DNA of 64,000 nt from Candidatus Babeliales bacterium. GTDB taxonomy: Bacteria; Babelota; Babeliae; Babelales; JANWKD01. The DNA is taken from assembly GCA_963762115.1 (NCBI GenBank), contig CAVXJH010000003.1, positions 320,001 to 384,000 on the forward strand, read 5' to 3'. Every line of letters starts with the position of its first letter. The stretch's first letter is position 1. A program made the translations under genes and the position numbers. Under the pieces are notes generated by a model. It did no database searches. It was not told the origin of the DNA and saw nothing but the letters and a program-made list of their open reading frames with translations. Below, in pieces: positions 13,365 to 14,719 of the stretch.

Positions 13365-14719
13365 TTAACTAATCAAACATGAGACAGTTTCAGTCAATTT
13401 TTTTTGATTGTTAATTAATTTCAACCCTTCGTCTATTCTTCTGTATAATAATAAAGGTTGTTTGAATGCTCCAATGCTACTTAATAATTTCTTTAAAACA
13501 ACCTCATTGTGTGTCGCTCTTGCTTTTTCAATGGCAAGTTTATACACCAATTTATCCAAGGTATTCATGGCTAATGTTTCTGGGCGCATCAAAAAAAACT
13601 GCTGTTCCCGATATCCCTCAGTGCGCACTAAACAATAGCAATCCTTCATCTTGGAAGTAATAATCATATTCGTAGGCAATGCATACTTATGCAATAATTG
13701 ACCATTTTTATTATATGAACAAAGATTATTATCAAAAACTGTCGTTATACAATTATCTTTGATTTCAACTATCTGACCCTGAATACTATAATCCTCACCA
13801 TTACAAAGCACTCGTGTTTTCGCACATAAATAATTCATACGCATAGCATCCTCAGTTGATATTAATATACCTCTTCTCTTTTTCTTACTTAATGCCACCA
13901 AAGCACTATCACGTGCAATGCCAATACTCGTTATCCCTTTAATGGGAATTTCTTCAAATACTCCTTCATCTATCATATATTTATATGATGGCTTATCTTT
14001 ACATCCTATAATTAAAAATTTATTATTTGGCGCAACAGCCAATGAAAGGATCATATTTGGTGCAGGCAATGCACACTCATATTGTTGAGGCTTCATAGAC
14101 CCATTATTGATAATGTTAGAAATTACCGTAATTGCAGAATTCGCAACAAATAACATTGGATTATCATGAAAAGAAAATGCCAATAAGCTTTCGTTAGCTA
14201 TTTTTAAAGTATGCAACAACTGCAAAGGAGCAGGGCCTGAATAAAGATACATATTTTGGTCAGATGCAGTTGCAAATAAAAGTGCTTTAGGAGCTCTCGT
14301 AAAAAACTTTATCGCTTCCCTATCATTATCATGAACATGATCTTTTTGATACGTTTCTTTTGTAAATAGATTTCTTATAAATATACCTCTTGAATCACAC
14401 CAAGCTAAATACGATGAGCCATCAAATTCAATAGATGTGGAAGAACTCATAAGCGGTAATTTCTCTTCAGAAAATTGCAGTGGCAAAGATTCATCAACTA
14501 CTTTAATTGTCTCTTGTTGCAGTTCTTCAGGAAGATCTATTAAATAACGGGTAATTTTTTTTATTTCTTGCGGCAAATCATCAAGATTGAAATCATCATA
14601 ATAATTTTTTTAAATGTCTGCAGACAAATATCTTTCAACGAAGGAACACGCATTGCAACAAGAGGAAAACTATATAGAGTCATACACAAAATCATAATAA
14701 CTATTTTAGTAAACTGCAT
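13365..14719 (-). CDS. Secreted BC/SOCS-box + WD40-like protein with C-terminal CaaX; frameshifted in an A7 run
   Basis: ATG at 14719 gives MQFTKIVIMILCMTLYSFPLVA-MRVPSLKDICLQTFKK; a -1 shift at 14605-14611 joins it to the 403-aa ORF (DDLPQEI..., LSLAVAPNNKFLIIG, ends SCLIS). Confidence 0.7.

Follow-up and report, generated by a model that had tools for sequence, protein, structure and literature searches.

The locus examined here raises the question of whether a bacterium of the Babelota, a group whose members observed so far live within protists, their full host range being undefined (PMC12172432), exports a protein that would engage the cullin ubiquitin ligases of its host. The window, by which we mean the whole 64,000-nucleotide stretch analysed, belongs to a Candidatus Babeliales genome (G000; 1.53 Mb in 7 contigs, about 34% GC). 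Translation of its minus strand from an ATG at 14719 opens with MQFTKIVIMILCMTLYSFPLVA-MRVPSLKDICLQTF and meets a stop after 52 codons, while a different minus-strand frame contains NYYDDFNLDDLPQEI...IDLPEEL, continues for 413 codons without a stop and ends in TVSCLIS-stop at 13365. The two frames switch over where the plus strand has seven consecutive T. A sequence-only reading had seen in these pieces a membrane-anchored adaptor for host Cul2/Cul5 ligases, and its inventory of signal peptide, VPSLKDICLQ, frameshift, LDDLPQEI, IDLPEEL and CLIS is borne out by the translation, as is its remark that the ORF list omits the N-terminus, the body being called there as 403 aa from an internal TTG (14576). 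The gene is flanked on one side by what we take to be ssb, and on the other by a small secreted ORF, a CDP-alcohol phosphatidyltransferase gene and a presumed mnmA-like gene.

Features of the locus, as positions in the window
Feature	Position	Strand	Basis or remark
Signal-peptide-like N-terminus (M1-A22)	14654..14719	-	Sequence; cleavage before Met23 inferred
BC-box consensus SLKDICLQTF (S27-F36)	14612..14641	-	Strict match to (S,T,P)LxxxC/S/AxxxPhi; helix 25-39 in ortholog model
T7/A7 run, reading-frame break	14605..14611		Sequence; ortholog L003 continuous there
Second helix, starting LPQEI; contains internal TTG start of 403-aa ORF	14538..14576	-	Poorly conserved among homologs
Conserved LP-helix (LPEELQQET), candidate Cul2-like box	14490..14534	-	PhiPxxPhi core present; last hydrophobic position not matched in window
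Predicted WD40-type beta-propeller, candidate substrate-binding domain	13581..14474	-	Mapped from ortholog model residues 81-382
Conserved C-terminal helical cap (KLxFKLAxEKA)	13419..13568	-	Homolog alignment and ortholog model
C-terminal CaaX CLIS and stop codon	13365..13379	-	Sequence; tail low-confidence in ortholog model

Among 40 relatives searched a single one, G001 of the same genus, gave a match, which lies at the same genomic place. This ortholog (L003) is a continuous 456-aa frame with a signal peptide, AMEVPSLLTICI, LPDSLQEKV and the polybasic CaaX end RRKRCIIS; it is 29% identical to the window body (E 1e-39) and aligns weakly to the detached N-terminal piece. Since both pieces align to one continuous frame of the ortholog, they constitute a single gene. 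The predicted signal-peptide cleavage junction, A-M(E/R), recurs in L003/P0011, P0005, P0012 and P0010.

The nature of the break decides what can be said of the window copy itself. No public contig spans the homopolymer (three DNA sequencing runs were aligned and none bridges the break), and one short contig that did align there was disregarded as unrelated and heavily gapped. Seven-base homopolymers are typical sites of sequencing error; since a run of seven identical bases is present in 12% of random 50-base windows, the coincidence of break and homopolymer is moderate evidence only. Elsewhere in the assembly, 12 of 256 conserved orthologs were flagged as frameshifted, comprising, as read from their coordinates, 9 neighbouring-paralog matches, 1 gapped case and 2 clear colinear frameshifts, neither at a long homopolymer; an adjacency filter applied to the same set listed a few additional breaks, and an earlier test of about 37 loci, too small a sample, had found none. 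The two colinear cases (G000:C3:259871 and C7:158056) both lie in membrane-protein genes that are intact in G001. That the frameshift is real and the window copy a recent pseudogene, whatever the mechanism, is a serious possibility: the assembly itself shows the break, two further colinear frameshifts among 256 conserved orthologs occur in non-core genes of G000, and fast turnover of effector families is established for Parachlamydiaceae (PMC4209131). In that case translation from the internal TTG would give a 403-aa product that has neither signal peptide nor BC box and does not leave the cell. However, the break is a single one at a seven-base homopolymer, it is followed by 413 stop-free codons, both terminal signals are intact and the syntenic ortholog is continuous. 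Since the gene shows no other decay and its sole break falls at a homopolymer, a sequencing error is suggested, with recent inactivation nearly as likely; for the window copy to be functional the break would have to be an assembly error, the odds of which are about even.

The family reaches beyond this pair of genes. A word-indexed search with the window body returned only itself, an unindexed search gave six homologs and a profile search two more (P0005-P0012), one of them truncated N-terminally; these eight are not independent, P0011, P0006, P0005 and P0012 being close kin (59-85%). The full-length homologs are 21-65% identical to the ortholog, and P0007-P0009 have no signal peptide in the sequences as deposited. 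A whole-protein profile finds matches in 9 of 261 Babelota genomes, strong only in G000 and G001. As published, a BC box reads (S,T,P)LxxxC/S/AxxxPhi and a Cul2 box PhiPxxPhixxxPhi, placed 8-23 residues downstream (PMC4878042, PMC3355856). SLKDICLQTF of the window fits the first consensus exactly; its last residue, F, is admitted by the published 'hydrophobic' position but not by the V/I/L that the sequence-only reading had specified. The xLxxxC core is kept in all seven full-length homologs and the strict consensus in six. That reading had named loss of the BC box or of the terminal Cys from homologs as the outcome contrary to its proposal; what is found is a BC-like core in 7/7 and the Cys in 5/8.

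In comparisons with known BC-box proteins, neither the propeller family nor 11 motif segments matched the SOCS, VHL or Elongin A profiles of Pfam, and motif profiles from two alignments (A1, A8) matched no SOCS, VHL, Elongin A or other BC-box chain in the PDB. A search of the 261 genomes with the Elongin_A family produced four sub-threshold matches, of which three were inspected and none is a BC module, while a query with residues 20-85 retrieved from the ESM Atlas three unnamed clusters at 0.82, within the range of chance. BC boxes are short and known as cryptic (PMC6232478), so that a profile miss is weak evidence.

The second element of the proposed adaptor, the cullin box, fits less neatly. 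The window sequences LPQEIKKIT and LPEELQQET agree with the first five Cul2-box positions and depart at the final hydrophobic one, whereas the strict PhiPxxPhixxxPhi pattern is present in 6 of the 7 full-length homologs. Throughout the propeller family the conserved LP box stands 25-31 residues past the BC box, outside the published 8-23; P0010 alone carries an additional box, at 13 residues. The cullin box is thus weaker than the sequence-only reading had it, with a wider spacing than the canonical one and, in the window, an imperfect last position. A Cul5 box has an LPPhiP core, and this is absent from all seven full-length homologs and from the window translation; together with the lack of any Pfam SOCS_box match in G000 or the propeller family, this led us to reject SOCS/Cul5 membership. 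The Cul5 half of the earlier assignment to Cul2/Cul5 ligases is accordingly unsupported, while the BC-like core on which the putative Elongin C binding would depend is conserved 7/7. A canonical F-box was also rejected, there being no Pfam F-box match in the protein or in G000 and one helix only between the conserved LP and the propeller.

The intact ortholog gave a confident model from a 14-sequence alignment (pLDDT 84, pTM 0.81), a single-sequence AlphaFold model (pLDDT 34.5) having been discarded. It predicts a helix at 25-39 that holds the BC box, helices at 47-59 and 63-75, the latter beginning at the conserved LP, strands from 81 to 382 and helices from 387 to 439, which amounts to a WD40-type propeller preceded by three helices and followed by a helical cap; the C-terminal tail with the CaaX is of low confidence. 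Foldseek retrieved WD40 propellers, and in VIA-align RbBP5 (Z 22.1, rmsd 3.2, 277 aligned), DCAF5 (Z 22.0, rmsd 3.3, 313 aligned, model range 36-434) and CSA (Z 21.0, rmsd 3.5, 301 aligned, model range 51-392), all WD40 propellers, are effectively tied. Among viral models, BTB/WD40 and WD40 proteins of giant viruses come nearest. Pfam propeller matches of the window protein are sub-threshold only, and the model with its structural matches now supports the beta-propeller-like body that had been read from the letters. The propeller dominates these structure searches, which carry little information on the N-terminal helices. The latter might instead dock on another adaptor, either DDB1, through a helix-loop-helix as in the DCAF WD40 proteins of CRL4, or Skp1, through a degenerate half F-box, the BC look being incidental or a relic. 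DCAF5 and CSA do rank among the best structural matches, PhiPxxPhixxxPhi is also the poxviral F-box consensus (PMC6232478), and LPxE[LI] occurs near the N-terminus of 13 G000 ORFs without a BC box as against 6 with one. We nevertheless consider such docking unlikely, because the best Z-scores do not separate one generic WD40 propeller from another, the motif is also carried by ankyrin proteins that have no propeller, a single helix separates the conserved LP from the propeller, the Pfam F-box-like family is blank for the protein and for G000, and the best-conserved positions are precisely the Leu and Cys of the BC box.

G000 holds a whole set of signal-peptide-bearing proteins with a common PxSLxxxC...LPxEL. 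A combined BC and LP regular expression matched 20 of 635 signal-peptide-like ORFs of this genome against 3.6 +/- 1.9 in 200 shuffles (maximum 9), so that chance would account for about 4 of the 20, and 7 of the remaining 771 ORFs against 6.9 in shuffles; this expression and that for CaaX ends were written after the motif had been seen, and the signal-peptide filter is a crude hydropathy rule. In 19 hand-picked G000 candidates the strict BC box is found in 17 (in two of which the expression matched a stretch other than the intended motif) and the strict Cul2 box in 10, 7 of them at canonical spacing. The bodies of the carriers are WD40, ankyrin or unrecognised, some being short and without a recognised second domain, and two ankyrin carriers additionally end in CTLQ. 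Across the module, too, the BC-box Leu and Cys are the best-conserved positions. A profile of 11 segments, the ortholog included, scores the N-terminal region of the window protein at 18.9 bits, the best reversed decoy reaching 8.8. One of 13 segments finds matches in 11 of 261 genomes and four Babelota families, a partly circular count that includes the four genomes which supplied training segments; beyond the training segments it has 13 hits, 11 of which show the strict BC box, 9 the strict Cul2 box as well and 8 this Cul2 box at 13-18 residues, three of these being tandem paralogs. In samples of other genomes the combined pattern was met in 3/162 (G001, 400 kb), 2/102 (G186, 200 kb) and 2/96 (G151, 200 kb), all within the shuffle range, and the expansion is therefore clear in G000 and sparse elsewhere. 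The BC motif behaves as a portable module, N- or C-terminal, on several substrate-binding folds.

Several carriers deserve separate mention. The tandem genes L010 and L011 (G000:C6:524308-525952) each encode a signal peptide, a BC/Cul2-like box with canonical spacing of 12 and 9 residues respectively, ankyrins and CTLQ. In G187 two ankyrin proteins, L148 and L141, bear the BC/Cul2-like module at the C-terminus, L148 having an F-box-like LPTELQAQI near its N-terminus as well. Three secreted-type BC-like proteins with basic KRRR-type stretches, possible nuclear signals, are encoded at G000:C6:198832-212829, a few kb from a two-secretin gene cluster. A distant Babelota protein, L119, combines a signal peptide, FQPLSLKEIV...LPLPTELKEHL and ankyrins and has the FQPxSL start in common with the module. 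Against Pfam SOCS_box it reaches 24.5 bits (cut-off 23.5) when the genome is searched, making its genome the one of 261 above the cut-off, falls below it at 20.5 bits when scanned as a protein, and reaches 3.4 bits only on a motif profile built without it. A protein like Elongin C, extended at its N-terminus, is encoded on a giant-virus MAG contig at L159:36-536 (+), possibly as host contamination.

Such a number of carriers could also be taken for a set of decoys, a dozen or more exported BC-box proteins that titrate host Elongin BC and so disable CRL2/5 rather than directing ubiquitination. The cullin box of the propeller family is indeed oddly spaced and imperfect, the strict Cul2 box is present in 10 of the 19 G000 candidates only, and some carriers are short and have no recognised second domain. 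We think this quite improbable, since the interaction domains of most carriers are large and varied and their LP box is spaced almost constantly, which fits target selection, and since the ANK/BC proteins of poxviruses recruit Cul2 although they have no Cul2 box (PMC6232478).

The C-terminal CLIS of the window protein recurs as a CaaX end in five of the eight homologs (CIIS three times, CAIS and CSLQ). P0008-P0010 lack it, so that the membrane anchor proposed by the sequence-only reading is an optional rather than a general feature of the family. CaaX ends with Ser as X favour farnesylation. In G000 as a whole, Cys at position -4 occurs in 46 of 1406 ORFs against 15-31 at nine other terminal positions, and strict CaaX ends number 17 in 1406, with 14/635 in signal-peptide-like ORFs against 3/771 in the others (Fisher p 0.002); the same pattern slid inwards gives 0-3 per group. 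Of the three other genomes sampled, only G001 of the same genus shows enrichment (5/368 against 0-2 slid), G186 and G151 having 1 each. Farnesylation of a bacterial CaaX protein by the host is established for AnkB, also in Dictyostelium (PMC2916131).

Both motifs might still be lineage-specific structural or export features without a host ligase role, CLIS being a chance ending. Profiles and the language model, whose best Atlas score of 0.82 is in the chance range, provide no link to known BC-box proteins, and three of eight homologs are without a CaaX. A reading of this kind has little probability, given that both motifs exceed their shuffle and slide controls and are concentrated in signal-peptide-like proteins, that the CaaX pattern persists through changes of spelling (CLIS, CIIS, CAIS, CSLQ) while the upstream tail diverges, and that BC plus LP fits a two-part published consensus. 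The enrichment over these controls also led us to reject a chance origin of both motifs together.

As for export, G000 encodes two secretins and two GspE/PilB-type ATPases. Type II is the only secretion system reported for Babela massiliensis, which grows in a vacuole and which, with F-box, RING, deubiquitinase and desumoylase proteins encoded, is a reported exploiter of host ubiquitin (PMC4378268); in Chromulinavorax 44% of proteins have signal peptides (PMC6561590). Given this vacuolar growth, a Sec signal alone does not explain crossing of the vacuole membrane. The enrichment on signal-peptide proteins of two eukaryotic motifs that depend on the cytosol is indirect evidence of delivery into the host cytosol. 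A separate feature of the signal-peptide-like set is [AGCS]-Met at the predicted cleavage site, present in 247 of 635 G000 signal-peptide-like ORFs (control windows 25-28) and in 52/162, 35/102 and 20/96 in the samples of G001, G186 and G151; the residue after this Met in G000 is E in 120 cases, Q in 28, D in 17 and N in 16. The mature ends would then be Met-Glu/Gln/Asp/Asn, which resembles eukaryotic NatB acetylation substrates; they may act as a signal for export or for stability in the host, or they may be relics of a start codon.

Our preferred reading, which covers the family and the intact ortholog, is that the propeller family probably mimics VHL-box receptors as a CRL2-type adaptor. 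The protein would be exported by Sec and a type II-like route and would pass into the host cytosol, where the BC-box helix is predicted to bind host Elongin C and the LP-helix may help to recruit a Cul2-type cullin; the predicted propeller would capture the host protein to be ubiquitinated, and the CaaX, where present, would be prenylated by the host and hold the protein at a membrane. The broader proposal that Babelota harbour true BC-box (Elongin C-binding) ubiquitin-ligase adaptors, the first such family in bacteria, with Sec/type II export, a Met-Glu-type mature N-terminus and modular WD40 or ankyrin domains with a prenylated CaaX, alongside Skp1/BTB-like adaptors, is one we advance more tentatively; a single small genome of a parasite could in this way engage several of the host's cullin ligases. 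On the latter, Skp1_POZ has 7 matches in G000 (L125-L131; C3, C5, C6), 2 above cut-off, and Pfam F-box-like has none. These matches are mostly on signal-peptide WD40 or LRR proteins, and the profile matches solved Skp1 chains at E 1e-10. Within the window itself, 60015-61307 (-) encodes a signal peptide, Skp1_POZ, WD40 and a C-terminal CAIS, a second candidate CaaX-tagged cullin adaptor, and 9536-11101 (-) a secreted-type protein with an N-terminal region that by eye is Skp1/BTB-like and a weak LRR match.

The VHL-box receptors of CRL2 (VHL, LRR-1, FEM1, PRAME, ZYG11) have, like this family, a BC box followed by a PhiPxxPhi(xxxPhi) helix and an interaction domain (PMC4878042, PMC3355856), whereas the Babelota proteins are bacterial, carry a signal peptide, place the cullin box 25-31 residues away, have an optional CaaX and show no detected profile-level homology, with binding predicted. 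Because the spacing fails and Elongin C/Cul2 binding is only predicted, we do not file the family as a VHL-box member. Parasite-encoded hijackers of Elongin BC include the poxvirus ANK/BC proteins (ectromelia 010), E4orf6 and Vif, the ectromelia type having its BC box on a repeat domain and, in poxvirus ANK/BC, needing the BC-box Leu and Cys for Cul2 binding (PMC6232478). Unlike the predicted exported, bacterial Babelota proteins, with their N-terminal box on a propeller and a CaaX, the ANK/BC proteins are viral, are made in the host cytosol, have the BC box at the C-terminus and lack a Cul2 box. PMC13342108 reportedly offers another viral example. Legionella AnkB resembles the window protein in joining a cullin-adaptor motif, an interaction domain and a C-terminal CaaX in a bacterium of protists (PMC2916131), but has an F-box (Skp1/Cul1) in place of the BC-like box, ankyrins in place of the propeller, and Dot/Icm delivery in place of the Sec-type signal. 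On our preferred reading the Babelota protein would work like AnkB with a different ligase handle; L010 and L011 come nearest to AnkB in architecture and would make better test cases than the gene at this locus. Modular cullin-adaptor mimics associated with amoebae are likewise found in the F-box/BTB expansions of Parachlamydiaceae, the ubiquitin-related proteins of Babela massiliensis and the BTB-WD40 proteins of mimivirus (PMC4209131, PMC4378268), which, unlike the Babelota BC family, address Cul1/Cul3. Mycobacterium tuberculosis PE5 is also bacterial and engages host CRL2, but through a C-terminal Gly-Gly degron that binds the receptor KLHDC2; PE5 lacks a BC box and does not serve as an adaptor (bioRxiv 10.1101/2025.06.11.659056).

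A literature search, mostly of open-access papers, found no bacterial BC-box or SOCS-box effector among the papers listed, no paper on Dependentiae and CaaX, and none on Babelota prenylation among those listed. SOCS and Elongin are absent from the main texts of PMC4209131, PMC7830128 and PMC11696984, and SOCS from PMC4776705 and PMC6561590; no BC box figures in the list of F-box, RING, deubiquitinase and desumoylase proteins of B. massiliensis given in passages of PMC4378268. The expanded families of PMC4378268 and PMC4776705 are itemised in their supplements and may bear on novelty. Domain surveys would miss the BC module, as the motif escapes Pfam.

The valuable part of this analysis is the family-level finding, the window copy being broken in the assembly and the Elongin C interaction predicted. 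Prenylation being possible only in the cytosol, the CaaX repertoire on Sec-signal proteins makes delivery of type II exports to the host cytosol testable. Known bacterial mimicry of cullin adaptors concerns the F-box (Cul1) and BTB (Cul3), the hijack of Elongin BC through a BC box being known from viruses. If true, a bacterial BC-box repertoire would close this gap and mark the CRL2/5 ligases of protists as a target of intracellular bacteria; in a phylum that has received little study, it would also assign a function to secreted proteins, a dozen or more in each genome, that are now anonymous.
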